From the IMG/VR virus record IMGVR_UViG_3300025280_000036, positions 1 through 60,023 of that record: a stretch of 60,023 nucleotides of DNA; one strand, given 5' to 3'. The DNA is from a virus. Its lineage: Duplodnaviria > Caudoviricetes. The position numbers and the translations under genes are program-made. Shown in pieces: positions 25,969 through 50,648 of the stretch. The notes below the pieces were generated by a model, which saw nothing but the letters and a program-made list of their open reading frames with translations, had not been told where the DNA came from and did not search any database. How positions within the stretch are numbered: position 1 is the stretch's first letter; each line of letters opens with the position of its first letter.

Positions 25969-26294
25969 TGGCTGTAACAAAGACGTTAAAGGCTATTCCG
26001 TACAGTAAGAGCAGCAAGGTTGAGAAATGGAATGTATCTGCGACTTACGAGAACGACAGCGAAGGCGATGCGACCTATTACACTTCCACTTTCTCAAAGA
26101 CCGTAGAAGCGACAGATTCTGATGGTACGGTGAACTTCGCCAAAAAAGCGAAAGGTTCATGGACGAAGAGCGAGATCGAGGCTTTAATGCCTATTTCGCA
26201 TTGGGATGAGGTGTTTGCCAGTCAGGTGGATTCGGTGATCACCAGTCCGGTGGTTCCGCCGACCGCTGATGAGAGCTTTTCGATCCCATCGTAA
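25968..26294 (+). CDS. Hypothetical protein (fibre-associated)
   Basis: Coupled to the fibre gene. Confidence 0.65.
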   Translation: MAVTKTLKAIPYSKSSKVEKWNVSATYENDSEGDATYYTSTFSKTVEATDSDGTVNFAKKAKGSWTKSEIEALMPISHWDEVFASQVDSVITSPVVPPTADESFSIPS

Positions 26295-27010: not shown

Positions 27011-27184
27011 ATGTTTGATTTAATCATTACTTTGGTATCGGTTGTCACGGGGATTGTATGTCTCGCCAGCTTTATTGCGGCTGTGACACCAACACCTAAA
27101 GATGACGTGTGGATTGGCAAATTGTATAAGCTGATCGATGTTTTAGCCCTGAACATTGGGAAGGCAAAAGAAAAGAGCGGTTAG
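27011..27184 (+). CDS. Small holin-like membrane protein (57 aa, not in the ORF track)
   Basis: MFDLIITLVSVVTGIVCLASFIAAVTPTPKDD...; GAGG RBS; first gene of the lysis block. Confidence 0.7.
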   Translation: MFDLIITLVSVVTGIVCLASFIAAVTPTPKDDVWIGKLYKLIDVLALNIGKAKEKSG

Positions 27185-27187
27185 AGA

Positions 27188-27610
27188 ATGGGATTCAAAT
27201 TGTCCATTGCGTTAGGAATTGCTTTGGTGATGCTGTCGGGAGGCTTCAAGCTCTACTACGACAAGTCAGAAGCTGAGAAGATGGCTATGGCAACGCAGTT
27301 GCAAACAGCGATGGACAATCAGTTACGCCTTGAGAACGCGGTTCAAACCCAGAACGAGCAGATCGAAAAAGCGGTTGAAAACAAGAAGACATCAGATGCT
27401 CGTATTGAATTATTGACGATGGCTAACAATCAGGCAACAGAAAAGATCGATGAATTACGCGAGAAATTCGCTCGTCACGATCTTGATATGTTGTCGTTGC
27501 GTAAGCCGGGATTGATTGAGAAAGTTGTCAATCGTGGTACGGCAGCCGTTTTCAAAGAGCTTGAAGATTTAACGAACCCGGATCAGTTTAATGCAGAAAC
27601 GGAAGGTTAA
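27188..27610 (+). CDS. Inner-membrane spanin (Rz-like)
   Basis: N-terminal TM followed by a coiled coil, next to a lipoprotein and lysozyme. Confidence 0.65.
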   Translation: MGFKLSIALGIALVMLSGGFKLYYDKSEAEKMAMATQLQTAMDNQLRLENAVQTQNEQIEKAVENKKTSDARIELLTMANNQATEKIDELREKFARHDLDMLSLRKPGLIEKVVNRGTAAVFKELEDLTNPDQFNAETEG

Positions 27611-27612
27611 AC

Positions 27613-28002
27613 ATGAAAGTCTTGGCTTTGGTTCTGCTGGTCATTTGCAGCGGTTGTACCACGGCATTTCGTCCGCCGGAGGTGCGGCCCGTCGAGGTGG
27701 TGACCATCGAGAAACCGGCTCCTATGTACCACCCGCCATTGCCGCCAAGAATAAAGAGTATGCCGGTCGAATGGAAGATTTTGACGCCGGATACGATGGA
27801 AGAGTATTTGAACGACCTGAAGGCTGGCGAAGCCCCAGTAAATGCTTGGTATTCGCTGACCACCAAAGGTTACGAAAATATCAGCAACAACATGGCACAG
27901 ATTCAAAGGTATATAAAACAGGTTTTATCGATAGTTGAGTATTACCGTGATGTTGACGCAGAACGGCAAAAACAGGATGCAGAGCCACCGATAGAGGAAT
28001 GA
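27613..28002 (+). CDS. Outer-membrane spanin lipoprotein (Rz1-like)
   Basis: Signal peptide ending CSGC; Pro-rich. Confidence 0.65.
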   Translation: MKVLALVLLVICSGCTTAFRPPEVRPVEVVTIEKPAPMYHPPLPPRIKSMPVEWKILTPDTMEEYLNDLKAGEAPVNAWYSLTTKGYENISNNMAQIQRYIKQVLSIVEYYRDVDAERQKQDAEPPIEE

Positions 28003-28439
28003 GCAGGTTAACGGAAATGTTGCGTCGGCATGAAGGTGTGGAAAGTCATGCTTATTTGTGCAGCCAGAACTTCACGACCATCGGTGTGGGCCGAAATATC
28101 GATGCCGGTGATAACGGTCGTGCAAGAGGATTAGGGCTTTCTGATGATGAGGTTGACTATCTGTTGCAAAATGACATTGATCGTGTGACAGAGGAACTGG
28201 ACGGTGAATACCCGTGGTTTGCGGGTCTGAATAACGCCCGATCTGATGCGATGATAGACATCAGTTTTAACTTAGGTCAGACGAGATTGAGAGGTTTCAG
28301 GAAGGCATTGGAAGCAATGGAATCTGGCGATTGGGAAGAGGCGGGTAAACAATTTTTGGACAGCCGGTGGGCCGATCAGGTCGGTAACAGGGCCACGGAA
28401 TTAGCAGAGATAATTCGCACGGGCGAATATCGGGATTAG
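27999..28439 (+). CDS. Endolysin, GH24 lysozyme
   Basis: HEG...TIGVGRN...FNLG...LDSRWADQVGNRA. Confidence 0.9.
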   Translation: MSRLTEMLRRHEGVESHAYLCSQNFTTIGVGRNIDAGDNGRARGLGLSDDEVDYLLQNDIDRVTEELDGEYPWFAGLNNARSDAMIDISFNLGQTRLRGFRKALEAMESGDWEEAGKQFLDSRWADQVGNRATELAEIIRTGEYRD

Positions 28440-28460: not shown

Positions 28461-29738
28461 ATGGGTAAGGGTAGCGGTAGTGGTGGTGGCAGACGGCCTG
28501 CTCCCCCCCGAGGTTTTCCCGGTAGACCAGGCAAGGGTAGTGGTGGGCAGCCGCGAACGAATCAGTGGTCACCCGGCCCCATGCCGGGATCGTCTTATAA
28601 CCAGCCCCAGCTTCCCGGTGGTTATGGGCGGATGCGGTATGAGCCACAGCAATTCAGTAGTTACGGCGTTCCAACCAGCATAGCCCAGCCGGGTGTTTTC
28701 GGTTGGGGTGAGTCAGTTTCAGGATTGGAGACTCCCGGCTCAAGGCGGCAATACGGCGGTGAAACATTTACTCAGGGAGCCGGGGGCCGTCAATGGACTG
28801 ACAGGTATGGGCGTGGCTGGGGAACAGACCCAATGCAACGGCAGCAGCAACAGTTTGGTGGAGGACCGGGCAAAGGTGGCAGAGGGCAGCCTTCTCCCCA
28901 GCAATTCCCCGGAGGACCGGGTAAGGGTGGTGGTGGATATGGGCAGGCACAGCAGTTAGGGCAGCAATTACAGCCAGCACAATTACAGCCAGCAGGAGCA
29001 GCATCACCTTATTTTCAGGACATCATGGGTCGAGCGGCATATGAGCCTCAGGGGCAGGCACAGCAGTTAGGGCAGTTACAGCAGCAATTAGCAGGGCAGC
29101 AGCAAGCATTAGGAGCCGGACTTGGTGGTGGGGTTGGGATGTATGGAGGGATGCAAGATGAGGCGGCAGCAGAACCAGCGCGGTTTGCAGCATCTCCATC
29201 GAAAAATGGAATTGTTGGCATAGGTGATTTCGAGCAGAAGCAGATAGTTGCGCCGAAAGATCAAGCTGTCGGTATAGGTGATTTTGAACAGAAGCAGATA
29301 GCTGACCAACCCTCTGTAACACCACAGAAGTGGACTCCAGAGGAGAAAGCAGCTTGGGCACAACGGGAGCAAGCTCCAGCCCCGGCTCCGGTCATACCTC
29401 AAAAATGGACGCCAGAACAAAAGGCTACTTGGGGTGGATGGTCACCAGAGCAGCAACAGTTGGCTCAAGGGAACACGGCTCTATGGACGCCACAGCAACA
29501 GAGTGCTTGGGGCGCAGGTCAGCCGTTACCCGGATGGTCACAAGCACAGCAAAGTGCTTGGGGCGCAGGTCAGCCGTTGACCGGATGGACACCACAACAA
29601 CAGAGAGATTGGCGCGCAGGAACGAAGCCATTGTCCGAGGTGCGATGGACTCCAGCACAGCAGGCAGCTTGGAGGGCAGCGCGAAGGGCTAATGGGGGGA
29701 TAGTTGGACTTTACTGGCCCGGAGGGCGGGTGCATTAA
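28461..29738 (+). CDS. Low-complexity G/Q/P/W repeat protein
   Basis: GPGKGG, VGIGDFEQKQI x2, about 9 W(T/S)PxQ repeats, terminal ANGGIV. Confidence 0.7.
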   Translation: MGKGSGSGGGRRPAPPRGFPGRPGKGSGGQPRTNQWSPGPMPGSSYNQPQLPGGYGRMRYEPQQFSSYGVPTSIAQPGVFGWGESVSGLETPGSRRQYGGETFTQGAGGRQWTDRYGRGWGTDPMQRQQQQFGGGPGKGGRGQPSPQQFPGGPGKGGGGYGQAQQLGQQLQPAQLQPAGAASPYFQDIMGRAAYEPQGQAQQLGQLQQQLAGQQQALGAGLGGGVGMYGGMQDEAAAEPARFAASPSKNGIVGIGDFEQKQIVAPKDQAVGIGDFEQKQIADQPSVTPQKWTPEEKAAWAQREQAPAPAPVIPQKWTPEQKATWGGWSPEQQQLAQGNTALWTPQQQSAWGAGQPLPGWSQAQQSAWGAGQPLTGWTPQQQRDWRAGTKPLSEVRWTPAQQAAWRAARRANGGIVGLYWPGGRVH

Positions 29739-38540: not shown

Positions 38541-41500
38541 ATGGGAACGGTTCGTGTAGAAGGTCTTGGCGAGGTTGAGATTGCAGGTGATACGCCTACC
38601 GTAGAGGAAGCAAGAAATATTTATGCATCTTTGCAGGAAAAAAAGTTAGAGCGTCCTCCAGATAAGGCACCTACACCTCCAGATAAACCTCCGGCCCCTC
38701 TTGCTAACGGTGAAGACCCTTCTGTTATAAAAGATATTCTTACTCAGGCCGTTGGTGGCGTTCGTGATGCCACTCAAAGTATTCTTAATTTAACAGCCAG
38801 ACCTGCTGCTTATCTTGAGGGTAAGCTTCCAACCACTGACAAACCGTTCAAACCGTTGACCCTACCTACTATTGCTCCGGCAAAAACCACAGGAGGAGGG
38901 GTAGCCAGAGGGCTTTCCCAATTTTTTGTGCCGTATTTAGGGGCGTTGAAAGTTTTGGGGGTTGGAAAAACATTTATTGGCACCTTGGCTAAGGCTGAAG
39001 GTGCGGCTGTTCTTACTGATCAGGCGGTCTTTGATCCGTTCGATCAAAAACTTTCTGATTTGGTTCAGTCAGTCCCTGCTTTACAGAATCCTGCTACGGA
39101 ATATTTACAAGCTGATGAAGATGATTCTGAGGCTGAAGCCAGATTCAAATTGGCTGTTGAAGGTATGGGATTGGGGGCTTTTGCTACAACTATCATTCAG
39201 TCTTTTAGGGGACTCAGATCACTCAAGAAAGGAAAGACAGAGCAAGGGATCAAGGAAGTTGACAAGGCTATCGAAGCTAGTCCAAAAATAGACCCGGTGG
39301 CATCGCCAAGAGAGGTTCTTGGGGATGACTATGCCGGGAATATACGAGTAGATAAATACAATACCACTGAAGATGTAAAACAGGGGATTCGTGATACTGC
39401 GGAAAAGAACGTGGGTAGGATAGACGAAGCAACACGCGGAACAATCACGACCGATCAATTAAAGGGACTAGCGCGAGAAGTAGGTTTAACTGTTGATGAT
39501 CTTTTAGATCGTGTTACAGGAGAGGCATGGAATGCAGAAGAGATATTAAGTGCTCGTATGATGATGTTAGCTTCTGCTATTAGGTTGCGTAATGCAGGAA
39601 AAGTAGCTTCAAAAACCGGGTTAGATGCTGATATCTTAAAAGTAAAAGATGCTCTTAATCTCCATGTTGGAATCCAAGAACAGGTATCTGGATTAGCTGC
39701 TGAAGCAGGTCGTGCGCTTAGACAATTTCGTCTAATAATTGGTGAAGGCAATGTAGAGGAATTATTGACTGCTGGAGGCGGGAAGAAAGCCATAAAAGAA
39801 ATAGCTGATCGTCTTGCTGTACTTGATCCAGAACTCGATATGGCGGTTTTTAATAATACGGCTAGGGTGCTTAATAAGCCAACCCTCATGGATAAATGGC
39901 TTGAGTTTTGGATCAACGGGTTACTTTCAGGACCGCAAACTCACGCGGTAAATTTTTTATCAAATGAATTAACATCGTTTTGGTCTATCCCAGAACATTA
40001 TCTGGCTGCCGGAATTGGTGCCATAAGAAAAACTCCAGAGAGGGTTACATTAGGAGAGGCTAATCATCGGCTTTATGGATGGCTCAAAGGACATCAGGAG
40101 GGCTGGGGTTTAGCCAAGAAAGCATTTATCACCGAAAGCCCGTCCGATATTTTTTCTAAATTGGAGCTTCCCAGAGAACGAGCAATAAAAGGCACACTTG
40201 GAAAGGTCATAAGATTACCCGGCAGGGCGTTGATAAGTTCTGATGAGTATTTTAAGTCGATTGGTTATCGGATGGAGCTTAACGCGCAAGCCTACAGGAG
40301 TGCTATTAAAGCTGGATTAAATCCGCGTTCAAGAGAATTTGCGGAATTTTTGGAAAAGATTAAAAATAATATCCCTGAAAATAAAAATCAAATAAAACAG
40401 GTGGCAAAAGAATTAGGGATGGGAGTTAGAGAATACAAAGCTCTGAAGAAAAAGATTTCCCTTAAAGCCACAGATAATGCCAGATACCTTACGTTCACTA
40501 AACCCCTTGAAGGCATTAGTGCTGACATTACATCTATACAGGCAAAAGCGCCAATTTCTAGGATGCTCATGCCATTTGTCAGAACTCCAACCAACATAGT
40601 CAGATTTGCCGCTGAAAGAACTCCTCTTGGATTGATGATGCGGGAAACGAAAAACGCCAAAGGAGCAGCAAAGGATGTGCAAATGGCTAAGATGGGGCTT
40701 GCGGCAGGGGCTGGTGCTCTCATCATGTCAATGGCAGGTCAAGGTAAAATAACCGGCTCCGGCCCAACCGATCCTAAAGCGCGCAGAGATATGTTGGATA
40801 CCGGCTGGCAACCTTATTCGTATGTTTATGAAGATGATGAAGGGAAGAAGCATTATTATTCCTACAAACGTATTGAACCGATGGGAATTTTGTTTGGCTT
40901 AACTGCGGATTTTCACGATATTGCTGGAGAAGTTCCAGATAAGGATGCAGATGAAATAGCGGCAGGTATTGTTGCTTCGATAAGCCAGAACCTTACCGAT
41001 AAGACTTTCTTTAAGGGGCTTGGTGATTTTTTCGAGGCTATGGGTAATCCAGACAGGCAGTTCACTGCCTACTTGCAGAATCTTAGCGGAACGATAGTAC
41101 CTTCTATTTTAGCTCAAACCACCAGAACCGTTGATCCTGTGTTAAGAGATACCAGATCATTTTTGAAAAGGATTAAATCGCGTATCCCCGGATGGTCCGA
41201 GACTCTTGAGGCAAGGCGCAATCTATGGGGAGAACGAATCATTCTGAGCGGGGGATTGGGTCCAGATATTATATCTCCTATTTATTCATCAGAATCAAAG
41301 AACGATCCGGTCGCCAATGAACTGGTCAGATTGGATTACCATCCTTCATTGCCGCAACGAACTCAAAGTGGTACAGAAATACCCGACAATTTGTATTGGC
41401 AATTTGTTGAAGACGCTGGCAAACCAGCGCATCAATTACTTGAAAGTATAATGGCACTGCCTGCATGGGAAGCGTTAAACAACAGACCTAGCGAACAAAA

Positions 41501-41693
41501 AGATATAATTAGAAAGGTTATTGATTTAACACGAAAGAACGCCCGACTTAAACTAAGAGTCGCAATGGGAGAATACTTGACTAAACAAGATAAGATTAAA
41601 ATAACAGAACAGTTAAAAATAGAAGGGCATTCTGAAGATAGCGCAGAGCAGTGGATTCGTGAAAATGTCAATAAAAAAACGGCAAGCCGGTAA
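38541..41693 (+). CDS. Large internal virion protein
   Basis: 1050 aa helical; LLSGPQTHAVN, PFVRTPTN, GWQPYS, YKRIEP motifs. Confidence 0.7.
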   Translation: MGTVRVEGLGEVEIAGDTPTVEEARNIYASLQEKKLERPPDKAPTPPDKPPAPLANGEDPSVIKDILTQAVGGVRDATQSILNLTARPAAYLEGKLPTTDKPFKPLTLPTIAPAKTTGGGVARGLSQFFVPYLGALKVLGVGKTFIGTLAKAEGAAVLTDQAVFDPFDQKLSDLVQSVPALQNPATEYLQADEDDSEAEARFKLAVEGMGLGAFATTIIQSFRGLRSLKKGKTEQGIKEVDKAIEASPKIDPVASPREVLGDDYAGNIRVDKYNTTEDVKQGIRDTAEKNVGRIDEATRGTITTDQLKGLAREVGLTVDDLLDRVTGEAWNAEEILSARMMMLASAIRLRNAGKVASKTGLDADILKVKDALNLHVGIQEQVSGLAAEAGRALRQFRLIIGEGNVEELLTAGGGKKAIKEIADRLAVLDPELDMAVFNNTARVLNKPTLMDKWLEFWINGLLSGPQTHAVNFLSNELTSFWSIPEHYLAAGIGAIRKTPERVTLGEANHRLYGWLKGHQEGWGLAKKAFITESPSDIFSKLELPRERAIKGTLGKVIRLPGRALISSDEYFKSIGYRMELNAQAYRSAIKAGLNPRSREFAEFLEKIKNNIPENKNQIKQVAKELGMGVREYKALKKKISLKATDNARYLTFTKPLEGISADITSIQAKAPISRMLMPFVRTPTNIVRFAAERTPLGLMMRETKNAKGAAKDVQMAKMGLAAGAGALIMSMAGQGKITGSGPTDPKARRDMLDTGWQPYSYVYEDDEGKKHYYSYKRIEPMGILFGLTADFHDIAGEVPDKDADEIAAGIVASISQNLTDKTFFKGLGDFFEAMGNPDRQFTAYLQNLSGTIVPSILAQTTRTVDPVLRDTRSFLKRIKSRIPGWSETLEARRNLWGERIILSGGLGPDIISPIYSSESKNDPVANELVRLDYHPSLPQRTQSGTEIPDNLYWQFVEDAGKPAHQLLESIMALPAWEALNNRPSEQKDIIRKVIDLTRKNARLKLRVAMGEYLTKQDKIKITEQLKIEGHSEDSAEQWIRENVNKKTASR

Positions 41694-41713
41694 AATAATC
41701 ACAGGAAAATAAA

Positions 41714-42343
41714 ATGACTACAGGACAAACAGTACCGCCGGGTTATTACGTCAGCAACAGCGCAGACGAGGACGTGTTCTGCGTCACGAAGACCAATAAC
41801 TTTTATTTCAAGAAAGCCCGTGGCAAGAAATGGGCACGTACTGATTCATGGAACTTCGATCATCTGTGTGATGTGGAAACCGTTAACGAAGTGCAGGGTG
41901 TCAGCGGTGATGTGAACACGCACGATGGCCGTGGTCTGGAAGTCAGCGTGTCGGCGCACATCGGTGTCACGGTATCCGACGTGATGAAGTGGCATTATGT
42001 CAACCCGGATGGCAACCAAGCCACGCTGTGGGCTGGCCCTGAAGGCGGACCCGGTAAGGGTGTGAGCATGGATGTGGGTGTGTGGTACGACAAGAACGGT
42101 AACGTTCATATGAAGCTCTCGGCTTCCGGGGTGATCCCTCATTTTGATTTTGGCGGGGAAGTTGTGATCAACCCAAAGACTGTTGAAAACTTAGAGAAAC
42201 CCACAGCAGATGACAAGGCGTTTGCCAAGGGGTTTACCGAGGGTGCCACTCTGGGTATTGCAGACAAGCCACCGAAGGTTCTGACCGAAGGTGTTGCCGT
42301 GGTGGATAAAGTGGGTAAGAAAGTTCTTGGCTGGTTCAAGTAG
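41714..42343 (+). CDS. Hypothetical beta-rich protein
   Basis: AGGA RBS; no recognised family. Confidence 0.7.
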   Translation: MTTGQTVPPGYYVSNSADEDVFCVTKTNNFYFKKARGKKWARTDSWNFDHLCDVETVNEVQGVSGDVNTHDGRGLEVSVSAHIGVTVSDVMKWHYVNPDGNQATLWAGPEGGPGKGVSMDVGVWYDKNGNVHMKLSASGVIPHFDFGGEVVINPKTVENLEKPTADDKAFAKGFTEGATLGIADKPPKVLTEGVAVVDKVGKKVLGWFK

Positions 42344-42349
42344 GGCGTT

Positions 42350-42613
42350 ATGTCGATAGTCACAGAATCTCCTGCCAATTTTTACGAAGGCTTGTTTATG
42401 AACGAGGGCCATTTCGTTGAATTCACGCTGGGGCTTGACAACCTCGTCTGGGTGAATGAGACCATCGAATCCATCCGCAAGCCAAAGCCTAAAATTATCA
42501 CCAAAATTTACGGCATTAAGGATGCGATAGAATTTCAAAGCAGTCTCATCGATTTTGGCTACCATCACTTACCCGCCTTTGAGTTATCCGAGCAGTCCGA
42601 CTACATCAATTAA
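42350..42613 (+). CDS. Hypothetical protein
   Basis: Fills the gap in the operon. Confidence 0.55.
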   Translation: MSIVTESPANFYEGLFMNEGHFVEFTLGLDNLVWVNETIESIRKPKPKIITKIYGIKDAIEFQSSLIDFGYHHLPAFELSEQSDYIN

Positions 42614-42627
42614 CGGGGCAGACGATT

Positions 42628-43002
42628 ATGGGCGATCAATTCAGCGGCGATCTTTCACGCAATGAAGTGGAGATGGATCTCAGTAAGTTCCTTGAGATTA
42701 TGAAGGACAACTCTGATCTCAAGGATAAGATCCGTGAATTGCAGGGCGCAGAAAAAGTCAACCCGTACCAGAAATGGATACATCTTGCCAAGACCATAGA
42801 TGCTTGGCGCATCTTTCCTCGCGTGTTTGTCGGGGTATATATCTATTTGCTGTACGCGGTGGTGATCTGGTTTATGACCCTTAACGAACCAAACTTGGAA
42901 CAAGCTGGTCTGGTGTCGGTCGTTGTTGGGGCAATGGCGGCAGTGTTTGGAATATACGCAGGCACGTCAGGACAGAGCAAAAAGTTTAAAGGTGAAGGTT
43001 AG
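42628..43002 (+). CDS. Two-TM membrane protein (holin-like)
   Basis: DAWRIFPR followed by two hydrophobic helices. Confidence 0.7.
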   Translation: MGDQFSGDLSRNEVEMDLSKFLEIMKDNSDLKDKIRELQGAEKVNPYQKWIHLAKTIDAWRIFPRVFVGVYIYLLYAVVIWFMTLNEPNLEQAGLVSVVVGAMAAVFGIYAGTSGQSKKFKGEG

Positions 43003-43283
43003 TGAACGAAGCCTTTAATCTGATTGCTGATGTTGGGTTCCCGATTGCGATTGCATTGATTGCAGGCTTCTTTATTTTCCTGACCATCAAGTACATTCTT
43101 GAAAGCGTCATCGGGCAGGTCAGCGGTATTCATGTGATCGTCACTGGCTTGGATAACCGTGTGAAAACGATGAACCATGACATCATTCGTTTAGATGCAA
43201 CCATGTGTGCGGTTCTGGGGATTAGACCTGATCTGGGCAGGATAGCTCGGGCTGACGGTAAGGACGATGCTCGGCGTGACTGA
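43002..43283 (+). CDS. Single-TM coiled-coil protein
   Basis: DVGFPIA...DIIRLD; paralog of the next ORF. Confidence 0.75.
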   Translation: MNEAFNLIADVGFPIAIALIAGFFIFLTIKYILESVIGQVSGIHVIVTGLDNRVKTMNHDIIRLDATMCAVLGIRPDLGRIARADGKDDARRD

Positions 43284-43543
43284 TGGATATCGCAAATGTT
43301 GTCAGCGAGTACGGTTTTCCTATCGTGGCGACGGTGGGTCTGTTGTACATGATTTATTTTATCTGGCAATTCATCACCCATCAGATCAAGAAGAAACTGT
43401 CAGAGGCGAATGTTACTTTGGTGGCACTCATTGACCGGATTCGGATGTTGGACAACGACATCATAAGGCTGCAACAGAAACTCGATACCGTCATTGAATT
43501 GCGGGAAGCAAAGGCGGAACAGAATGAAATGGATAAGGATTAG
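43283..43543 (+). CDS. Single-TM coiled-coil protein
   Basis: EYGFPIV...DIIRLQ. Confidence 0.75.
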   Translation: MDIANVVSEYGFPIVATVGLLYMIYFIWQFITHQIKKKLSEANVTLVALIDRIRMLDNDIIRLQQKLDTVIELREAKAEQNEMDKD

Positions 43544-44015
43544 TTTGCTGCTGGTGCTTTCTCCGGCTTTATCTTATTCGTCTGAGTTGGTTCACAAGTT
43601 CGGTAGCCCTAGTTTCAACGGGATCAATCAATCGGCCCATTACCTGACCATTGATGAGCAGGAAAGAACCCGCTCAGAGAAAGTTGCTGCGGATATCCAA
43701 GATGCCTTGGACGAGGCTGAACGTGAGGCGGATAACACCACGCTTGCCAAGTTCCTGCGTAATCTTGAGTCGAGGATTTATTCAACACTCGCCAAGGACA
43801 TTTCAGAATCGCTGTTCAATTACGACAACATCCCCACAAGCGAGAACCCCATCGTCGGGAGAATCAATCTCGAAGGCAATATCCTTACGTGGCTTAACGA
43901 TGGAACCAGCATTACGCTCACCATCGAGGAATGGTTCGACGGGCTTCTGATCTCAACCACTGAGATCGTGATTCCTGTAGGTTCTTTCGGAGGGTGTCTG
44001 ACAGACTGTGAATGA
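43524..44015 (+). CDS. csgF: Curli assembly protein CsgF
   Basis: Signal peptide, SELVHKFGSPSFNG, FLRNLESRIYSTLA...LF, TEIVIP. Confidence 0.85.
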   Translation: MKWIRISLLLVLSPALSYSSELVHKFGSPSFNGINQSAHYLTIDEQERTRSEKVAADIQDALDEAEREADNTTLAKFLRNLESRIYSTLAKDISESLFNYDNIPTSENPIVGRINLEGNILTWLNDGTSITLTIEEWFDGLLISTTEIVIPVGSFGGCLTDCE

Positions 44016-44857
44016 TGAAGCACTTATTCTTGTTAGCCGTGTTGCTTGCCGTGGGTTGTGCGCCTATTGGCATGGGCAAAAGAAATGAAGATTGCAGTTC
44101 TCTTACGGCGTGTATTGAGGGTCCGCAGATCGTACCCAGTGCAGCCCAGCAGTTACTAAACCTGCCGCCTCCTAAGAACAAGGCGGTGGTGGCGGTATAC
44201 AGTTTCACCGACAAGACGGGACAACGAAAGTCCAACGACAACCTAGCCAGCTTCAGCACCGCAGTTACCCAAGGCGGTGTGGATATCCTGATTGAGGCGT
44301 TGAAGGACGCAGGCCGGGGTAATTGGTTTGCGGTGGTGGAAAGAGCAGGGCTGGACAGCCTGACCCGAGAACGACAGCTTATCAAGAACACCCGGCAGAC
44401 CTACGCCGGGGAGGGGGAGAATGTCCTCAAGCCGTTGCTCTATGCCGGGTTGATCCTTGAAGGTGGCATTTCGTTTTACGACACGAACCTGCGAACCGGT
44501 GGTAACGGGGCTAGGTTCTTAGGTATCGGGGCGATGAACCAGTACCGCGAAGACAAGGTGACGGTAATTCTGCGAGCAATACTGGTACAAACCGGGGAAG
44601 TGTTGCTGAACGTGACGGCCACGAAAACCATCCTGTCCACCGGCAGGGGCACCGACCTGTTCAGGTTCTACGAACAGGGTACTGAACTGGTTGAGATCGA
44701 GAGCGGCAGCACCGAGAACGAACCGGTGGGTCATGCCGTCAGAGCAGCTATCGAGGCGGCGGTGTACGGGCTGGTGATTCAAGGTCTGGAAAGGCAGGTC
44801 TGGGACTTCGATTATGCTAAACTGGTGCGGGAGGATAACGATGAAAGTTCTTCTTAA
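44012..44857 (+). CDS. csgG: Curli secretion channel CsgG (outer-membrane lipoprotein)
   Basis: LAVGC lipobox; VAVYSFTDKTGQRK, FSTAVTQG, WFAVVERAGLDSLTRERQLI, EGGISFYD, GIGA..QYRED. Confidence 0.95.
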   Translation: MMKHLFLLAVLLAVGCAPIGMGKRNEDCSSLTACIEGPQIVPSAAQQLLNLPPPKNKAVVAVYSFTDKTGQRKSNDNLASFSTAVTQGGVDILIEALKDAGRGNWFAVVERAGLDSLTRERQLIKNTRQTYAGEGENVLKPLLYAGLILEGGISFYDTNLRTGGNGARFLGIGAMNQYREDKVTVILRAILVQTGEVLLNVTATKTILSTGRGTDLFRFYEQGTELVEIESGSTENEPVGHAVRAAIEAAVYGLVIQGLERQVWDFDYAKLVREDNDESSS

Positions 44858-45518
44858 ATTGTTGATGCTATTGGTTCCGGCGGTTGTGCTTGGAGCCAAC
44901 AACGATATATACATAACCCAGACAGGAACGGGCCTTACATTGACCATCGACCAGATCGGGGCGAGCAACAAGGTTGGAACCTCGCAGGCCAGAGTTATTT
45001 TGGGTGGCACCAGCATGACCGTTGATCTGGATCAGATCGGTGACACCAACGTCATCGCTGCAAGCATCTTACAAGGCAACTCATCCAGTTGGACATACAA
45101 AGCAACGGGTGATAGCAACGTGGCTACCCTCGCAGTCGGGGCAACCGGGGATTCTGCCAGTTCGGATTTCGACTTCGAGGCCACAGGCGACAGCAACGTG
45201 CTCACGTTCACCCAAGGTGACGCAGCAACAGCCACGGCAGGTAATCAGGATTTCGCTGTGACAGGCACGTCAAACGATCTGAACGTCAAATGCAACGTCA
45301 TCGGCTGTATCAACAACTGGACTGTCTCAGGGAACAGCAACGATATCGATACGTTGCAATCAGGGCGACAGGATCACGACATCACCATATCCCTTACCGG
45401 TTCTTCAAATAATGTTGACGTGGATCAAACCGACACGGCCAGCACCAATGTGGCTAACATCATTTCAACAACGAGCAACGGCGTCATCAACGTGGATCAA
45501 TGCGCCAGTGGCTGTTAA
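44841..45518 (+). CDS. Secreted curlin-like beta-solenoid protein 1
   Basis: Signal peptide; repeated xQxGxxN / GxSN units. Confidence 0.75.
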   Translation: MKVLLKLLMLLVPAVVLGANNDIYITQTGTGLTLTIDQIGASNKVGTSQARVILGGTSMTVDLDQIGDTNVIAASILQGNSSSWTYKATGDSNVATLAVGATGDSASSDFDFEATGDSNVLTFTQGDAATATAGNQDFAVTGTSNDLNVKCNVIGCINNWTVSGNSNDIDTLQSGRQDHDITISLTGSSNNVDVDQTDTASTNVANIISTTSNGVINVDQCASGC

Positions 45519-46585
45519 GTTTACTGTTCGTTGGTGCAGCCCATGCGGCAGGCATTGGGGAGATATCTGAGTTAAAGGGTGTCGGTGAGATCACCCGTAA
45601 GGATTCCGACGCTGCATTCCTAGCTGAACTCGCTTCCGATATTTTCTCTTTCGATGATGTCACGACCGGCAACGGTCGCATGGCAATCCAGTTTCTCGAT
45701 TCTTCTACGCTGAAGTTAACAGAGCACTCTAAGGTGGTCATTGATGAATACATCTATGACCCCGATCCCAGCAAGACCAAGCTGGCCCTGAACATGGCGT
45801 CAGGTACGGCCCGGTTTATCACGGGTGCTTTGGCGAGGATCAACAAGAACAACATTTCCATTCGCACCCCCAGTGCCACCATCGCTATCAGGGGCACGGA
45901 CTTCACCACCACGGTTGACGAGCTTGGCCGCTCGCTGATCATCCTGCTGCCTGATCCTGATGGCACCTCCTCGGGGGAGATTTCAGTGACCACATGGTCG
46001 GGGACGGAAATTCTCAACCAGCCCTTCCAGGCCACGATGGTGTCAACCTTTGAGTCACGGCCTACCAAGGCCGTCACCCTTGGCAACATCACGCTTGATC
46101 TGATCGACAACATGCTGATCATCAACAAGCCGCCTGCCATTGTGCAAGCAGAGGCAGAGCAGAGCGGTGAGGTAAAGACCGATCTCGACAGGGATTTCTT
46201 TGAGGATGCTCCCGATCTGGATAAGGATTTTCTTGAGATTGAAGAGGAAATCAGCAGGCTGGATATTGACCTGTTAAGTTTTGATTTTCTGGTGGATTTA
46301 TTAGCAATCGTTGAGACTGGCAGTAAGAAGAAAACCACGTCTGGTGGTGAGCTACAGGGCGTGGAACTGACCGGGATCATCCCCGGTTTTGATCCGACCT
46401 ACCAGACTTATACCTTTGTCGAAGGGATGTATGTGTATTTTGTTCACCAAGGAACCAACACGTTTGATATAGCCTTGGACAAGGAAGCAGCAGCTTACCT
46501 GAGCATAAATTCTTTTGGCGTTCCGATGGAGATAGAGGTCAATGGCGCGGGCGATAATACTATCGTTATTTTTCAGTCTCCTTAG
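45500..46585 (+). CDS. Periplasmic FecR-domain protein
   Basis: Signal peptide; DDVTTGNGRMAIQFLDSSTLKLTEHSKVVID...GTARFITG...TPSATIAIRGTDF. Confidence 0.88.
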   Translation: MRQWLLSLLFVGAAHAAGIGEISELKGVGEITRKDSDAAFLAELASDIFSFDDVTTGNGRMAIQFLDSSTLKLTEHSKVVIDEYIYDPDPSKTKLALNMASGTARFITGALARINKNNISIRTPSATIAIRGTDFTTTVDELGRSLIILLPDPDGTSSGEISVTTWSGTEILNQPFQATMVSTFESRPTKAVTLGNITLDLIDNMLIINKPPAIVQAEAEQSGEVKTDLDRDFFEDAPDLDKDFLEIEEEISRLDIDLLSFDFLVDLLAIVETGSKKKTTSGGELQGVELTGIIPGFDPTYQTYTFVEGMYVYFVHQGTNTFDIALDKEAAAYLSINSFGVPMEIEVNGAGDNTIVIFQSP

Positions 46586-47339
46586 TCTGGCACATGCAGG
46601 TGATAACCTGATCACCATTCAGACCAAGGGCAGTGGTACAACCATAACGACCAAGCAGATTGGCAGCAGCAATATCACGGGCGTCTATTGTGGGCTGGGC
46701 AGCTTCGACAATTCACTGGTCAATACTCATAATTGTGATGACGCGACCATCACATCAGTAGTTGATGGTGTATCGAACGTCGTGTACTCGCAATCGGTAT
46801 GGTCAAATCATTCCGATCAAAGCTGGATCACAACCGTTACCGGGACTGACAATTACGCGGTGATCGATATGGATGAATCAGGTAGCACGTCAAGGATCAC
46901 CCAGATTGGCAATGATAATCAGGCATGGATTCTGGGTTCAGGTGTTGACAACGTATACAAAACCGAACAAACCGGCGACGACATGTACGCCAAAATTATC
47001 TCGTTCGCTGATGACAGCGACATCTGGATCACGCAGGAAGGCAGCGGTGATCACAATGCCTACGTCTATAACTCCGGGAGTGCTCATCGCAACGACACCC
47101 GATTGATCCAGAAAGGGTCGGGTAACAAAGATGCCGATGTGTTCTGGTACGGCGCAGACGATGGCGATTTAACGCTTACCCAGCAAGGCAATGGATCACA
47201 TACCTCGCTCATCAAATTTTATACGGACGACTACGATGTCACTGTCGTCCAAAAAGGGACCACCAACAAGGCTTACTCAGCTACGTTTAATTGTGTAAGT
47301 AATTGCGACAAAACCATCAGCATCACGCAACAGAATTGA
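46542..47339 (+). CDS. Secreted curlin-like beta-solenoid protein 2
   Basis: Signal peptide; ITQIGNDNQA, ITQEGSGDHNA, IQKGSGNK, LTQQGNGSH repeats. Confidence 0.75.
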   Translation: MARAIILSLFFSLLSLAHAGDNLITIQTKGSGTTITTKQIGSSNITGVYCGLGSFDNSLVNTHNCDDATITSVVDGVSNVVYSQSVWSNHSDQSWITTVTGTDNYAVIDMDESGSTSRITQIGNDNQAWILGSGVDNVYKTEQTGDDMYAKIISFADDSDIWITQEGSGDHNAYVYNSGSAHRNDTRLIQKGSGNKDADVFWYGADDGDLTLTQQGNGSHTSLIKFYTDDYDVTVVQKGTTNKAYSATFNCVSNCDKTISITQQN

Positions 47340-49120
47340 AAATCCTGCTCCCAATTTTGCTGGCGTTGTTGTTGCTGCGGGTGTTCGATCCGTTCCCGGT
47401 GGAGACCCTTAGACTAAAATACTTCGATGCGCTGCTCACCATCAAAGAGCCCGTCCAGAGCAAAACGATTTCCCTGTACAACATCGATGAAGCGGCACTG
47501 GCTGAAGGAGGGCAATGGCCGTGGCCTCGCCAGCAACTGGCGGCTCTCAATGATCAATTGCTTGATGCAGGTGCAGTGGCAGTGGTCTACTCTGTGTTGT
47601 TTCCTGAAACAGATCGATTCGGCGGGGACGCGGAATTTGCCGAGAGCATGGGCCAAGTTCCTACCTTCCTCTCGGCGGTAGCGACTGCCGACACTGACAG
47701 GCAGGAAGGCTGGCACATCGGGGTCACCACGATGGGGCCGGTCGAAGAACACGTTCTGAGCTATCCCGGCATCCTGCCGAATGTTGATGTACTTCAGCAA
47801 GCGGCGGCTGGTACCGGGATCGTCAACACTGCCGCGGAGGTGGATGGGCTGGTGCGGAGGGTACCGATGCTGGTGAAGGTTGGGGAGAGCCTCTACCCGG
47901 CCCTTGGGCTGGATGTGCTGCGTGGGCTGGCGGGTGACCCTTCTTATCAAGTAAAAGCCGCTCAGAGCGGCATACAGACCGTTAGAGTGCCTAATTACAG
48001 CACCATCGAGACCGATAGCTCTGGTAGGGTGTGGGTCGATTGGAACACGACGTTTTCTCCAGAACCCCTAGCAGGCACCATCGTCTTCGTGGGGGCTACC
48101 GCAGCCGGGGTTTCCCCTGTTGTTTCAACCCCAAGACTTGGGATGCATCCGCATCAGGTTCAAGCAAACCTGTTTGAGACCCTGCTGAACGGCACGTCGC
48201 CGGTACGCCCGGACTGGGCGCTGGGTGCTGAAATATTGGTTGTCCTGATTTTTGGCCTTTTCACAGCGTGGTCAGTGCGTTATTTGCCTGTTTTGGTTGT
48301 ACCAGTAGGGGTCATTGGGATCGGCGCTCTAGCGGCCTCTGCCAGCGTCTGGGGCTATCTAAGTTTAGGCATTCTGGTTGATGCTGCATTTCCGGTACTT
48401 TCTAGCCTCACAATCGGTGGAACGGGTGTAGCTCAGAGAATGATCAGTGAATATCGCCAGAAATTGCAGATCAAGGGGATGTTTGGAACGTATGTCAGCC
48501 CCAAGCTGGTTCAGCAATTGGTGGACGATCCATCCTTGATGAAGCTCGGCGGCGATACCAAGACCATGAGTTTTCTGTTTTGTGATATCGTTGGCTTCAC
48601 CCCTATCTCGGAGCATTTCAAAAACAACAACGATCCGCAGGGACTTGTCACCCTCATCAACCGTTTGCTGTCTGCCTTAACCGATGTGGTGCTGTCCCTC
48701 GATGGCACCATAGACAAGTACATGGGCGATTGTGTGATGGCGTTCTGGAACTCACCTGTGGATTGTCCCGACCATGAGGAAAGGGCTGTGACTTGTGCTG
48801 CCATGATGCTGGTCGCGCTTGAACATCTCAATGAGGAACTTGAACTTGAGGGATTACCAAAATTAGGCATTGGTGTCGGGCTTAACACTGGGCCAGCAGT
48901 CGTGGGAAATATGGGGGGCAAGCAGCGTTTCGATTACTCAGCTATCGGGGATAGCGTGAACGTGGCTGCTCGCTTGGAAAGCAGTTCAAGAAAGTATTCC
49001 GAAGATGTTTTGATTGGCGAGGCGACAGCCAAAGCTGTGCCTGAGTTGGTGAAATATTTGGATTCAATTCAAGTTAAAGGTAAAGAGGAACGGTTAGAGG
49101 TTTATACATTGCGTAACTAA
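47336..49120 (+). CDS. CHASE2-domain membrane adenylate cyclase (class IIIb)
   Basis: IDE...GQWPWPR...LFPETDRFGGD, DGLVRRVP; 3-4 TM; FCDIVGFT, DKYMGD, YSAIGDSVNVAARLE, VKGK; TTG start overlaps the previous stop. Confidence 0.93.
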   Translation: MKILLPILLALLLLRVFDPFPVETLRLKYFDALLTIKEPVQSKTISLYNIDEAALAEGGQWPWPRQQLAALNDQLLDAGAVAVVYSVLFPETDRFGGDAEFAESMGQVPTFLSAVATADTDRQEGWHIGVTTMGPVEEHVLSYPGILPNVDVLQQAAAGTGIVNTAAEVDGLVRRVPMLVKVGESLYPALGLDVLRGLAGDPSYQVKAAQSGIQTVRVPNYSTIETDSSGRVWVDWNTTFSPEPLAGTIVFVGATAAGVSPVVSTPRLGMHPHQVQANLFETLLNGTSPVRPDWALGAEILVVLIFGLFTAWSVRYLPVLVVPVGVIGIGALAASASVWGYLSLGILVDAAFPVLSSLTIGGTGVAQRMISEYRQKLQIKGMFGTYVSPKLVQQLVDDPSLMKLGGDTKTMSFLFCDIVGFTPISEHFKNNNDPQGLVTLINRLLSALTDVVLSLDGTIDKYMGDCVMAFWNSPVDCPDHEERAVTCAAMMLVALEHLNEELELEGLPKLGIGVGLNTGPAVVGNMGGKQRFDYSAIGDSVNVAARLESSSRKYSEDVLIGEATAKAVPELVKYLDSIQVKGKEERLEVYTLRN

Positions 49121-49217
49121 AAAGTGCCCAGCGTGGTTCGTGCGGGGACCACACTCTGGGCCGTATCCCCGTTTTTACAATTCGTACATTTGAAAGAAAA
49201 TCCTAAAGGGTTGACTT

Positions 49218-50141
49218 TTAGGATTCTTTCATTTCTTCATCAAGAATAAATCTGCCTAAAGCCTCAACCACCTGTGGCACGACAGCATTACCGAGCGACT
49301 TCAGACGCGGTGTGCGATCAGGGCATCCATTGATCACTCTTGGGATTCCTCCAGGTTCGTCCAGCCATCTGGAAACCCCATCAGGAACTCTACAAACGCT
49401 GGATTGAGTTGACCATGAACCTTCTGACGTTCCCCCGCCTCGTTTATCACTTTTGTCGTTAAACTTTCCTGTGAACCCTTTTTCCCTCGGCTCCTGTCTT
49501 GATAGCCGAGTCTCGCTTCGTGGCTCATGGGCGTCGGCCACAGACGAGGATCTCGCACCTGTTGGGAAAGATGGATTTGATGGCGTTCTGCGAGTTTGCT
49601 CGTCATGGCGTGTTTGTAGGATGTTGCTATTGTGTACGCCTCGGCTCGATCCTCGCTGGCGTTTGGCGTTTGCCACAATCCAGACTCGATCCCGCCTGTG
49701 CGGGGCATCGACGGCGCAAGCTGGAACAACAAACGATTGTGTGGCGTAACCCGAATCTTCCAAGTCAGAAAGCACCGTGTCGAGTTCCATGTTGATGATG
49801 CCACTAACATTTTCGCCAACGACCCAAGCTGACTCCACCTCCCGTATGACTCGTAGCATTTCAGGCCAGAGTGCGCGGTCATCTTCCGAGCCTCGCTGGT
49901 TCCCGGCGACACTGAATGGTTGGCAAGGAAATCCACCGCAAACAAGCTGAGTTGCCCCTCTGTATTGTCGTCCATCTAATTCCTCAATATTGTCGTGAAT
50001 CGGTACATCAGGCCAGTGCTTTGCAAGTACCTTGCGACAGAACGGATCAGTCTCGCAAAATGCCACTGTCTCCATCCCAGCACGTTCCAAGCCAAGGCTA
50101 AAGCCGCCGATGCCTGAAAACAAGTCAAGCACGGTCATCAT
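49218..50141 (-). CDS. C5 cytosine DNA methyltransferase, alpha chain (motifs I-VIII and X)
   Basis: LDLFSGIGG, GGFPCQPFS, ENV, RRDRVW, LGNAVVP; motif IX absent. Confidence 0.93.
   Translation of the reverse strand: MMTVLDLFSGIGGFSLGLERAGMETVAFCETDPFCRKVLAKHWPDVPIHDNIEELDGRQYRGATQLVCGGFPCQPFSVAGNQRGSEDDRALWPEMLRVIREVESAWVVGENVSGIINMELDTVLSDLEDSGYATQSFVVPACAVDAPHRRDRVWIVANAKRQRGSSRGVHNSNILQTRHDEQTRRTPSNPSFPTGARSSSVADAHEPRSETRLSRQEPREKGFTGKFNDKSDKRGGGTSEGSWSTQSSVCRVPDGVSRWLDEPGGIPRVINGCPDRTPRLKSLGNAVVPQVVEALGRFILDEEMKES
49334..49975 (-). CDS. Nested alternative-frame methyltransferase beta chain (TRD plus motif IX)
   Basis: GAGGA RBS; LWQTP/LWPTP; QLNPAFVEFLMGFPDGWT. Confidence 0.8.
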   Translation of the reverse strand: MDDNTEGQLSLFAVDFLANHSVSPGTSEARKMTAHSGLKCYESYGRWSQLGSLAKMLVASSTWNSTRCFLTWKIRVTPHNRLLFQLAPSMPRTGGIESGLWQTPNASEDRAEAYTIATSYKHAMTSKLAERHQIHLSQQVRDPRLWPTPMSHEARLGYQDRSRGKKGSQESLTTKVINEAGERQKVHGQLNPAFVEFLMGFPDGWTNLEESQE

Positions 50142-50317
50142 TTAATGCTTTTTCCTATGAACACTGGTGCCATTGGCGTTTTTTTTCGATCTATTTCAGG
50201 GCCAGCCCAGAGCCAATGGATGCGCCCGCAAGCCTTGCAACGCACATATTCTCCGACAACTTTCAAATCCCTTTGGACCTTGTGGTCCTTGGTTTCACCC
50301 CCGCAGGAACATTGCAC
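50138..50317 (-). CDS. Small Zn-ribbon protein (59 aa, not in the ORF track)
   Basis: MQCSCGG...RCKACGRI; stop overlaps the methyltransferase ATG. Confidence 0.6.
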   Translation of the reverse strand: MQCSCGGETKDHKVQRDLKVVGEYVRCKACGRIHWLWAGPEIDRKKTPMAPVFIGKSIK

Positions 50318-50342
50318 TATTGATCCCCATCAGCTAAATAAT

Positions 50343-50648
50343 TTAATAATCGATTAGTTTTTTTGCCCTGTGCAGAACGTCATTGAATTCTTTCTGATGA
50401 TTGCCTGTATCTGAGTAACTCATCATCTCATACGCTTCGATCAATTCATCGAGGGTTTTTTTCAACTCATCGATCTCTTTCTCGTATTCGGCGAACAGAT
50501 TAATAGGTTTCCAATCCCTTAAAAGTTTTTCAATTTCTTCGTATCGTTGTCTTTTAATAGACCTGATCCTAGCGGCACTACCTATACCGCTCACTGTCGA
50601 AGGCGGTACTTCCTTACGCTTTTTTTCTGGAGGATTGAGCCAGTACAT
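50343..50648 (-). CDS. Hypothetical protein
   Basis: GGAGGA RBS. Confidence 0.6.
   Translation of the reverse strand: MYWLNPPEKKRKEVPPSTVSGIGSAARIRSIKRQRYEEIEKLLRDWKPINLFAEYEKEIDELKKTLDELIEAYEMMSYSDTGNHQKEFNDVLHRAKKLIDY

Follow-up and report, generated by a model that had tools for sequence, protein, structure and literature searches.

What would a marine phage gain from encoding a curli secretion pore side by side with a receptor-type adenylate cyclase? The question is raised by a nine-gene cassette at 42628-49120 of IMG/VR virus record IMGVR_UViG_3300025280_000036, a genome estimated to be complete, all 60,023 bases of which make up the window analyzed here. The nine open reading frames (ORFs) all lie on the + strand, with starts and stops that overlap or abut throughout, and encode in order three small membrane proteins, CsgF, CsgG, a first curlin-like protein, a FecR-domain protein, a second curlin-like protein and a CHASE2 cyclase; together they occupy 6493 bases, or 10.8% of the genome. 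A reading made earlier from the DNA letters (hereafter the sequence-only reading) had described this order, strand and overlap, and all nine ORFs were located as it said. The answer that we favor, at about even odds (a probability of roughly 0.5), is that the cassette couples export of a curli-type fiber to a FecR/CHASE2 sensor that would turn a state of the periplasm into cyclic AMP (cAMP).

A linked cassette and its parts

IMG/VR was scanned with an alignment of CsgG, which matched at least 600 stretches and gave at least 587 confirmed viral CsgG loci, and the best 80 were scored with hidden Markov models (HMMs) built from the alignments of this study. A gene was counted only where the contig flank was long enough (for CHASE2, at least 6 kb downstream); the 80 loci are those nearest to the window's CsgG, and shares among them may not hold for the whole family. 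The survey takes in both small and large phages, since contigs reach up to 141 kb. CsgF was present in 70/70 loci, a curlin gene after CsgG in 67/67, FecR in 62/62, CHASE2 in 37/37 and the cyclase catalytic domain in 36/36, while the family formed by two of the small proteins, of 93 and 86 amino acids (aa), was found in 64 of 65. The second curlin-like gene follows FecR in 43 of 55 loci and is thus dispensable in part of the cassette family; in 7 loci where it is missing, FecR abuts the cyclase directly (gap -19 to +4). In 4 loci the cyclase is inverted onto the opposite strand and the linkage is retained. The sequence-only reading had staked its case on these genes occurring together in other genomes, and they do: linkage is complete wherever the flank sufficed and survives both cyclase inversion and gene insertions. 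The cassette genes are a co-selected unit. They are also common in ocean viruses, to judge from the 587 or more IMG/VR contigs with a CsgG relative and from 16 run rows in which near-identical copies appear; at least half of the block's sampled words are present in each, every labeled row is a marine or seawater metagenome, and the source may be among them. No RNA data set appears among the rows listed.

The cassette has a published history. The main text of Wittmers et al. 2022 (PMC9599517) describes a module in nine HTVC023P-type podoviruses and in pelagimyophages, with one or two "histidine kinases" followed by CsgF, CsgG, CsgA/B, FecR, often a second CsgA/B, and adenylate cyclase; these are the same genes in the same order as in the window. 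The same text regards FecR, the histidine kinase (HK) and the adenylate cyclase as foreign to bacterial curli operons, infers that the module arose in Alphaproteobacteria and moved between phage families, calls the cyclase "frequently" present in the podoviruses, and reports environmental (metatranscriptome) transcripts; the term "CHASE2" is not mentioned in it. Zaragoza-Solas et al. 2020 (PMC7029224) and Buchholz et al. 2022 (PMC9004378) deal with the pore genes only, the word "cyclase" occurring 0 times in their main texts, and a literature search joining CsgG, adenylate cyclase, phage and FecR found only Wittmers et al. Hence the sequence-only reading was correct that the pore genes were already known, but its claim of novelty for the whole set fails, since the full cassette with FecR and cyclase was in print in 2022 (PMC9599517, main text). 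PHROGs already holds families for CsgF-, CsgG-, FecR- and cyclase-like proteins, and the same genes occur in the same order in the Pelagibacter phage HTVC008M (gp011-gp019) and the Methylophilales phage Melnitz (genes 97-104), where GenBank labels them CsgF, CsgG, curlin-associated, FecR domain and adenylate/guanylate cyclase; their cassette proteins are 29-51% identical to the window's. Because its large terminase is 53-57% identical to those of 023Pt_psg01, HTVC027P, HTVC023P and DSL-LC04, the source phage is assigned to the HTVC023P-type podoviruses. By the main text of PMC9599517, their mean genome size of 58.8 kb fits the 60,023 bases of the window, their mean G+C is 42.1 +/- 6.4% against 0.44-0.56 per 2 kb here, and their module takes up 7.8 +/- 1.6% of the genome against 10.8%. 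The window therefore holds a further, recombinant copy of the published module in a relatively G+C-rich phage of this type. What is new in this work are the viral linkage counts, the virus-only combination of genes, the bacterial context of FecR-domain adhesins and type I secretion, the failure of the HK and iron labels, and the separate lysis set.

We regard the identity of the parts as almost certain. The sequence-only reading had listed the protein families to be looked for, and Pfam confirms CsgG, CsgF, FecR, CHASE2 and Guanylate_cyc, with Curlin_rpt borderline in single proteins and solid at family level. Likely true starts were taken from the relatives together with signal-peptide-like N-termini judged by eye, and fall at 43524 for CsgF, 44841 for the first curlin and 47336 for the cyclase. 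The CsgF homologue (43524..44015, + strand), predicted to be secreted, opens as an ORF at TTG 43494 and gains its signal-peptide-like start from ATG 43524; it matches PF10614 at E 7.9e-7 (29.7 bits against a cut-off of 25.8) and phrog_35372 at E 6e-32. Against solved structures its family profile found residues 1-50 of E. coli CsgF at a marginal E of 0.022, and the single sequence found no CsgF match. CsgG, the outer-membrane curli secretion channel, follows at 44012..44857 (+ strand; PF03783 E 5.5e-55) and aligns with E. coli CsgG structures over residues 38-268 (E 5e-43). Its N-terminus ends ...LLAVGC, with a Cys after the hydrophobic stretch that is lipobox-like by eye, and its NCBIfam CsgG score of 160 bits lies well under the equivalog cut-off of 505. 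Aligned to the E. coli protein, the putative constriction loop of the channel keeps its Phe and differs at the residues aligned to Tyr and Asn.

The two curlin-repeat proteins, both predicted to be secreted, are the less obvious members. Curlin 1 (44841..45518, + strand; ORF open from 44814, with a signal-peptide-like start at ATG 44841) scores 16.7 bits for Curlin_rpt in the window's copy, below the cut-off of 20.7, and the repeat is found in 6 of 8 relatives (best E 1.2e-7). Curlin 2 (46542..47339, + strand) scores 21.3 bits against the same cut-off, all 9 of 9 relatives carry the repeat (best E 1.6e-16), and among solved structures its profile picks out the curlins 8c50 (1.1e-12) and CsgA 8enq (7.5e-4); NCBIfam CsgA matches at 1.1e-12, under the equivalog cut-off. 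By hhalign (96.5%, E 8e-10) the two curlin families are homologous to each other. The likeness to bacterial curli thus lies in the CsgG alignment, in CsgF and in the curlin repeats, whereas the phage set scores far under the NCBIfam equivalog cut-offs, its curlins differ by conserved cysteines, and it has no CsgE, CsgC or CsgD-like gene. That last absence had been noted from the letters alone, and it stands: CsgE (PF10627), CsgC (PF10610) and the GerE-type CsgD-like domain (PF00196) each gave 0 matches in the window. CsgE, CsgC and CsgD are not known to define curli systems outside the Gammaproteobacteria, and in those other groups absence of CsgE is usual (reportedly described by Dueholm in 2012).

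The secreted FecR-domain protein (45500..46585, + strand) comprises PF04773 at residues 52-142 (E 1.2e-11), an acidic stretch and a C-terminal region; PF04773 is its sole Pfam family at E up to 0.1, and phrog_37870 matches at E 2e-70. Its start is signal-peptide-like by eye, and no further hydrophobic segment follows (no 19-residue window reaches 1.6). Homologues are numerous, at least 6128 among 8000 scored candidates, with many from marine surveys; the family profile gave 0 matches to solved structures at E up to 1, and residues 195-361 gave no usable match in the ESM Atlas. The ...NG.GDN.I.I.Q ending looks by eye like a curlin repeat, an idea rejected on hhalign comparisons with the curlin 2 family (0.5%, E 0.13) and the curlin 1 family (3%). 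The protein has the periplasmic domain PF04773, but it is not a regulator of the FecR anti-sigma kind. The E. coli FecR/FecA/FecI system has the PF04773 domain in common with it, and there FecR contacts the outer-membrane transducer FecA (available text of PMC5498481); the phage protein lacks both an anti-sigma domain and a membrane anchor, and a sigma-70-family gene is missing from the phage. The likeness is one of domain and not of membership, and the "FecR iron regulator" label was rejected on these grounds. Sigma70_r2 gave 0 matches in the window; a sigma partner might be encoded by the host.

The last gene encodes the CHASE2 receptor adenylate cyclase (47336..49120, + strand; CHASE2 E 6.4e-36, Guanylate_cyc E 2.9e-18). 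Its ORF opens at TTG 47303, and its start is probably TTG 47336, because relatives align from there; this start overlaps the preceding TGA. The predicted layout is one transmembrane (TM) segment, a periplasmic CHASE2 domain (~28-306), three TM segments and a class III catalytic domain; PF05226 spans residues 19-319, and hydropathy places the hydrophobic segments at ~9-34 and 303-371. The PHROG family match reaches 600 bits over the full length, and class III cyclases are its nearest relatives of solved structure (E 5e-29). The catalytic residues that the sequence-only reading had called intact are all present: D428, D476, K472 (in DKYMGD), S546, R542, N553 and R557 (NVAARLE). The role of each position is assigned after mammalian and cyanobacterial class III cyclase structures. 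In an alignment of 69 rows (68 distinct sequences, viral and bacterial), the metal Asp residues are kept in 69 and 68 rows, the Lys in 67 and the Arg in 68, the catalytic Asn position is Asn in 64 and Ser in 4, and the specificity site is Ser in 39, Thr in 25 and Asp in 4. By its residues, then, this would be an intact class III adenylate cyclase, with cAMP as the predicted product. The architecture of CHASE2, TM segments and class III cyclase is that of CyaD1, CyaD2 and CyaK of Sinorhizobium meliloti, but the bacterial relatives run to ~740 aa with a C-terminal extension that the phage enzyme lacks.

Two side observations concern viral relatives of the enzyme. In the cyclases of Melnitz (L002; L-numbers are locus labels) and of L035, L102 and L154, the specificity Ser/Thr is replaced by Asp and the catalytic Asn by Ser, together in 4/4. 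At L018:1084-2883, L025:450-2222 and L148, the window's CHASE2 domain is matched at 74-77% identity and its catalytic domain at only 47%, which points to recombination between sensor and output.

Of the three small membrane proteins at the head of the cassette, two belong together. The 93-aa protein (43002..43283, + strand; phrog_18771, E 2.2e-28) has one N-terminal hydrophobic segment and a coiled-coil-like tail; the 86-aa protein (43283..43543, + strand; phrog_18771, E 1.6e-27) is its paralogue, again with one N-terminal hydrophobic segment. The pair align at 22-25% identity, with a common GFPI motif and an LDNR..DIIRL block. Both resemble single-pass inner-membrane proteins, and a cytoplasmic tail is suggested because the tail follows a positively charged stretch (by eye). 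The 93-aa type is the protein that Wittmers et al. labeled "histidine kinase" (PMC9599517, main text). This label was rejected: 0/12 family members match HisKA or HATPase_c at E up to 1, and no histidine column is conserved in the family alignment. A profile search of 1.84 billion representatives returned 855 matches, the best 150 of which span 64-209 aa with no long fusions, and in the ESM Atlas the matches of the 93-aa protein were viral clusters apart from a YvrJ cluster (0.89), no more than a lead. Neither "histidine kinase" nor "iron-dependent FecR regulator" is a label to be relied on. The third protein (124 aa, 42628..43002, + strand; phrog_10198, E 4e-21) has two C-terminal hydrophobic segments, at 62-86 and 90-114, and is a different case. 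Of 58 viral loci whose flank reaches at least 2.5 kb, 13 have it upstream of CsgG, and a 70% identical copy sits elsewhere in the myophage-like contig L027; it is an accessory neighbor and not a core cassette member. The set of three small proteins proposed from the letters accordingly shrinks to the 93-aa/86-aa family.

Bacterial relatives of the two halves

The nearest cellular relatives of the cyclase were collected by a scan with the cyclase alignment, one genome per species, which gave 80 loci. Five of these were phage-like contigs in metagenome-assembled genomes (MAGs) and were set aside: L025 (Cellvibrio), L026 and L027 (Flavobacteriaceae), L035 (Legionellales) and L102 (Pirellulales). 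On them lie cassette genes or T4-like genes for tail and baseplate, with HTVC008M or Melnitz as the nearest relative; they are probably phage contigs binned with bacteria, and their MAG taxon labels are therefore no guide to host. The 75 bacterial loci that remain are mostly alphaproteobacterial, with cyclases 31-37% identical to the window's, and around them CsgG, CsgF and curlins gave 0 matches. Among the nearest of them, the cyclase often adjoins a different surface system. A FecR-domain ORF is present in 19 of the 75, within 500 bp of the cyclase in 10, and a type I secretion ABC transporter and HlyD both adjoin the cyclase in 16 (HlyD alone in 1 more), mostly among the closest relatives, L028-L047. 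At L037:2520-12133, a single strand encodes a 1397-aa protein (FecR domain at the N-terminus, cadherin-like domains, C-terminus of serralysin type), then an ABC transporter, HlyD and the CHASE2 cyclase. At L050:6279-12184 a 1223-aa protein with FecR, Big_9/cadherin, VWA and RTX domains overlaps the cyclase start, and a Nitrospirales variant (L032:9938-15589) has the cyclase, a small FecR protein and a Big_2/OmpA protein. With the CsgG query used, no match was found in the genomes that hold L037, L050 and L032. The neighbors of the closest bacterial CHASE2 cyclases are thus often a FecR-domain RTX adhesin and type I secretion, not a curli pore. Literature searches combining CHASE2 with type I secretion and adhesin, or "FecR domain" with RTX and adhesin, found no paper in the library searched.

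The other half was approached from the side of the pore. Among 401 sampled genomes of L037's class, a CsgG match occurs in 12 and is strong in 7 (46-52% identity). These seven alphaproteobacterial csgF-csgG loci have CsgF in 7/7 and a curlin-like ORF in 5/7, and FecR, CHASE2 and the small-protein family in 0/7. Because 0/75 bacterial cyclase loci and 0/7 alphaproteobacterial curli loci combine both halves, the combination of curli with a FecR/CHASE2 cyclase is virus-only among the loci searched. By its relatives, the cassette looks like a chimera of an alphaproteobacterial-type csgF-csgG-curlin set, a FecR-domain/CHASE2-cyclase set and the virus-only small-protein family.

Published bacterial systems offer partial parallels. 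In S. meliloti the outer-membrane protein NsrA feeds CHASE2 cyclases and cAMP in response to an external protein signal (available text of PMC13001267), and CHASE2 cyclases can therefore take input across the outer membrane. Another parallel is the Burkholderia biofilm operon "BiofilmReg" (PA4035-type), which, by the available text of PMC5192318, pairs the gene for a secreted FecR-domain protein with one for a CHASE2 sensor, in a system tied to biofilm formation. There, the FecR protein carries LysM and lies beside a CHASE2 kinase, and output runs through a histidine kinase and a response regulator, whereas the phage has a cyclase, a curli pore and curlins.

Weighing the readings

On the reading to which we give even odds, CsgG (as a lipoprotein) and CsgF would form the outer-membrane curli channel, the two secreted curlin-repeat proteins would be its likely cargo, and the infected cell would build a curli-type surface fiber. 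The FecR-domain protein, whether periplasmic or exported, would act with CHASE2 to report a periplasmic or surface state tied to that fiber (export, assembly or contact), and the cyclase would convert the sensed state into cAMP. Host proteins would have to read the cAMP, because the phage encodes no protein that binds cyclic nucleotide monophosphates (cNMPs). The two small single-pass inner-membrane proteins travel with pore, curlins, FecR and cyclase. By its predicted topology the cyclase is of receptor type with its sensor domain facing the periplasm; CHASE2 being an extracytoplasmic sensor domain, the enzyme is presumably built to respond to something outside the cytoplasm. The signaling idea is not made in the main text of the 2022 paper, and it is a reasonable reading with some support from bacterial synteny. 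The CHASE2 identity and the bacterial FecR-adhesin neighbors turn it into a concrete hypothesis, that of a cAMP sensor coupled to a surface filament, and bring with it a bacterial system.

Strength differs among the parts of this proposal. That the curli half and the FecR/CHASE2 half are functionally coupled, by whatever route, is a proposition towards which we lean. The particular relay order advanced by the sequence-only reading, from surface sensor to pore to FecR to cyclase, is doubtful. More speculative still, a FecR/CHASE2 pair may be a general trans-envelope sensor for a secreted surface filament, an RTX adhesin in Alphaproteobacteria and curli in marine phages. In such a device the FecR domain would be held under the outer-membrane channel with the filament outside, and a pull on the filament, or its engagement, could be read by CHASE2 and passed on as cAMP; the phage would in that case give a planktonic cell a sensor of contact or attachment. 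The idea of FecR retention is borrowed from LapA-type adhesins, whose N-terminus plugs the channel.

A number of observations weigh against coupling of a fiber to a FecR/CHASE2 sensor, and the first of them concern the mosaic structure of the cassette. In L004-L014, loci found via the cyclase, the cyclase is 76-88% identical to the window's and the 93-aa protein 86-89%, and the CsgF/CsgG/curlin 1/FecR block drops to 49-62% (FecR itself 51-57%) and curlin 2 to 40-42%. In L105, L107, L108 and L109, found via CsgG, the pattern is reversed: CsgF/CsgG/curlin 1/FecR are 66-83% identical and curlin 2 72-77%, and the CHASE2 domain is only 37-39%. The N-terminal part of FecR is 79-83% identical in relatives whose CHASE2 is at only 37-39%, and the tight FecR-CHASE2 pairing implied by the earlier relay is not supported by this comparison. 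FecR and CHASE2 are freely re-paired, and they are therefore a poor fit to a finely co-evolved interface. A further 49 viral cyclases are mostly 33-45% identical to the window's. By these identities the cassette is an old and diverse set of exchangeable modules, which would argue for interchangeable function, and the window's copy is a recombinant whose pore-to-curlin block and cyclase have different nearest relatives. In a check of the backbone, the window's internal virion protein, its 209-aa and 87-aa ORFs and its methyltransferase have no match at E 1e-10 in L105-L184. Moreover, unrelated genes stand between curlin 2 and the cyclase in several relatives, and in 56 of the 75 bacterial cyclase loci a FecR-domain ORF was not found in the available flanks. 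From outside the phages, the S. meliloti FecR-domain gene smc02177 is dispensable for signal perception (available text of PMC5498481), and no clumping was seen in Melnitz infections (Buchholz et al., PMC9004378, main text), which speaks against fiber formation. Finally, with no phage cAMP receptor, any output would depend on the host.

The strongest competing explanation is one of fibers alone, in which the curli serve aggregation ("sibling capture") or shield against superinfection, and FecR, cyclase and small proteins are regulators or independent auxiliaries; it has been proposed in the main texts of both Wittmers et al. (PMC9599517) and Zaragoza-Solas et al. (PMC7029224). It draws on the universal presence of CsgF, CsgG and curlin in the surveyed loci and on the resemblance of the curlins to solved curlins, and it is at ease with the re-pairing of modules and with the unrelated genes that can separate the cyclase from the rest. 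It does less well with a cyclase present in 37/37 loci and adjacent even when inverted, which is beyond the need of a loose auxiliary gene, or with an extracytoplasmic sensor domain on that cyclase. The "HK" and "iron regulator" labels fail the domain tests, and no CsgD-like or cNMP-binding regulator that might let cAMP act on the operon is encoded by the phage. We therefore hold it to be a serious but rather unlikely account of the cassette.

Much less probable is the suggestion, proposed for Melnitz by Buchholz et al. (PMC9004378, main text), that CsgG, alone or together with CsgF, acts as a gated channel and depolarizes or permeabilizes the envelope to trigger lysis, with the small proteins holin-like. 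The 86-aa protein does have weak PHROG matches to holin (6.6e-4) and to an Rz-like spanin (7.8e-3), and the late block ends with the cassette. However, the phage has its own lysis set at 27011-28439, inside the structural block. A 57-aa membrane protein (27011-27184) is holin-like by eye; a 140-aa protein (27188-27610), which starts hydrophobic at its N-terminus and continues as a long, charged body of helical look, resembles an i-spanin; a 129-aa lipoprotein-like, proline-rich protein (27613-28002) resembles an o-spanin; and a Phage_lysozyme protein (27999-28439; E 4.4e-13) completes the series. With the holin and spanin roles read by eye, the phage thus owns a separate holin/spanin/endolysin set, and the argument that the curli pore replaces missing lysis genes is removed, for this phage. 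Nor does a lysis pore account for the cargo-like curlins beside it in 67/67 loci, and CsgG sits in the outer membrane, whereas depolarization requires the inner one.

Least convincing among the functional proposals is an import channel, in which an ungated CsgG, with no CsgE, would admit nutrients or iron complexes to be sensed by FecR, an idea raised in the main texts of PMC9599517 and PMC7029224. The absence of CsgE from the window is its chief attraction. Against it, the FecR protein has no anti-sigma domain or anchor, the phage has no sigma factor gene, and the universal curlins and CsgF are left unexplained. The absence of CsgE is in any case reportedly usual outside the Gammaproteobacteria. 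We consider the proposal very improbable.

There remains the notion that the block is host DNA misjoined to a phage contig, a possibility that the sequence-only reading had itself raised. In 4/4 public runs, contigs fill all 30 bins of 40500-50500 and extend across the left junction at 42628; one of them, 9261 bases long, matches 40500-44259 with 0 differences. The same flanks recur in independent IMG/VR contigs, with the internal virion protein upstream in L007 and L010, the 209-aa ORF upstream of the cassette in L007 and L014, and the methyltransferase downstream in L015, L019 and L022. Taken with the 16 run rows, the run contigs and shared flanks refute misassembly as far as contigs can show, and an artifact of this kind is scarcely credible.

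Insertions and the surrounding genome

Relatives of the cassette differ in what they carry between the second curlin and the cyclase. Related phages have 3-5 small, very lysine-rich proteins (60-101 aa) and a conserved ~88-aa protein at that point (L009:5340-6764, L010:8788-9962, L012:3368-4795, L013:8788-9962 and L008:1742-3166); the window and L014 are without them. In the myophage-type cassette, genes are inserted at the same place (L035:5767-6321 and L026:4225-4852), and by eye their products resemble the Fe-S subunit NuoB, a ferredoxin and a small protein of Fe-S assembly type.

In the source phage, rightward genes run from ~7 to 49 kb and include small and large terminase, portal, major head protein, adaptors, tail spike and internal virion proteins, with the cassette at the end of this late block. 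Leftward genes occupy both ends and include a helicase, a primase/helicase, an exonuclease and a DNA methyltransferase. No tRNA gene was found in the window, and no gene for a cNMP-binding protein or cAMP receptor was found in the phage. Where the cyclase gene and the leftward DNA methyltransferase gene converge, the gap holds a terminator-like hairpin (49199..49225, + strand) with an 11-pair stem and a T-rich tail. The terminator scan of the region was not above chance (10 sites against 7.3 expected), so that this hairpin is supported by position only, and the promoter scan was likewise not above chance (6 sites against 7.7 expected).

Three further genes of the structural region deserve mention. 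Next to the lysis set, a 425-aa ORF at 28461-29738 has a very high content of Gly, Gln and Pro, repeats the motifs WTPEQ/WTPQQ and has no PHROG match. An aspartyl/asparaginyl beta-hydroxylase (E 3e-43) lies at 9926-10642 between terminase and portal, and a 2OG-Fe(II) oxygenase (E 5.9e-13) at 26294-27001 inside the structural block; auxiliary genes of such a hydroxylase/oxygenase kind are listed for HTVC023P-type phages in the main text of Wittmers et al. (PMC9599517).

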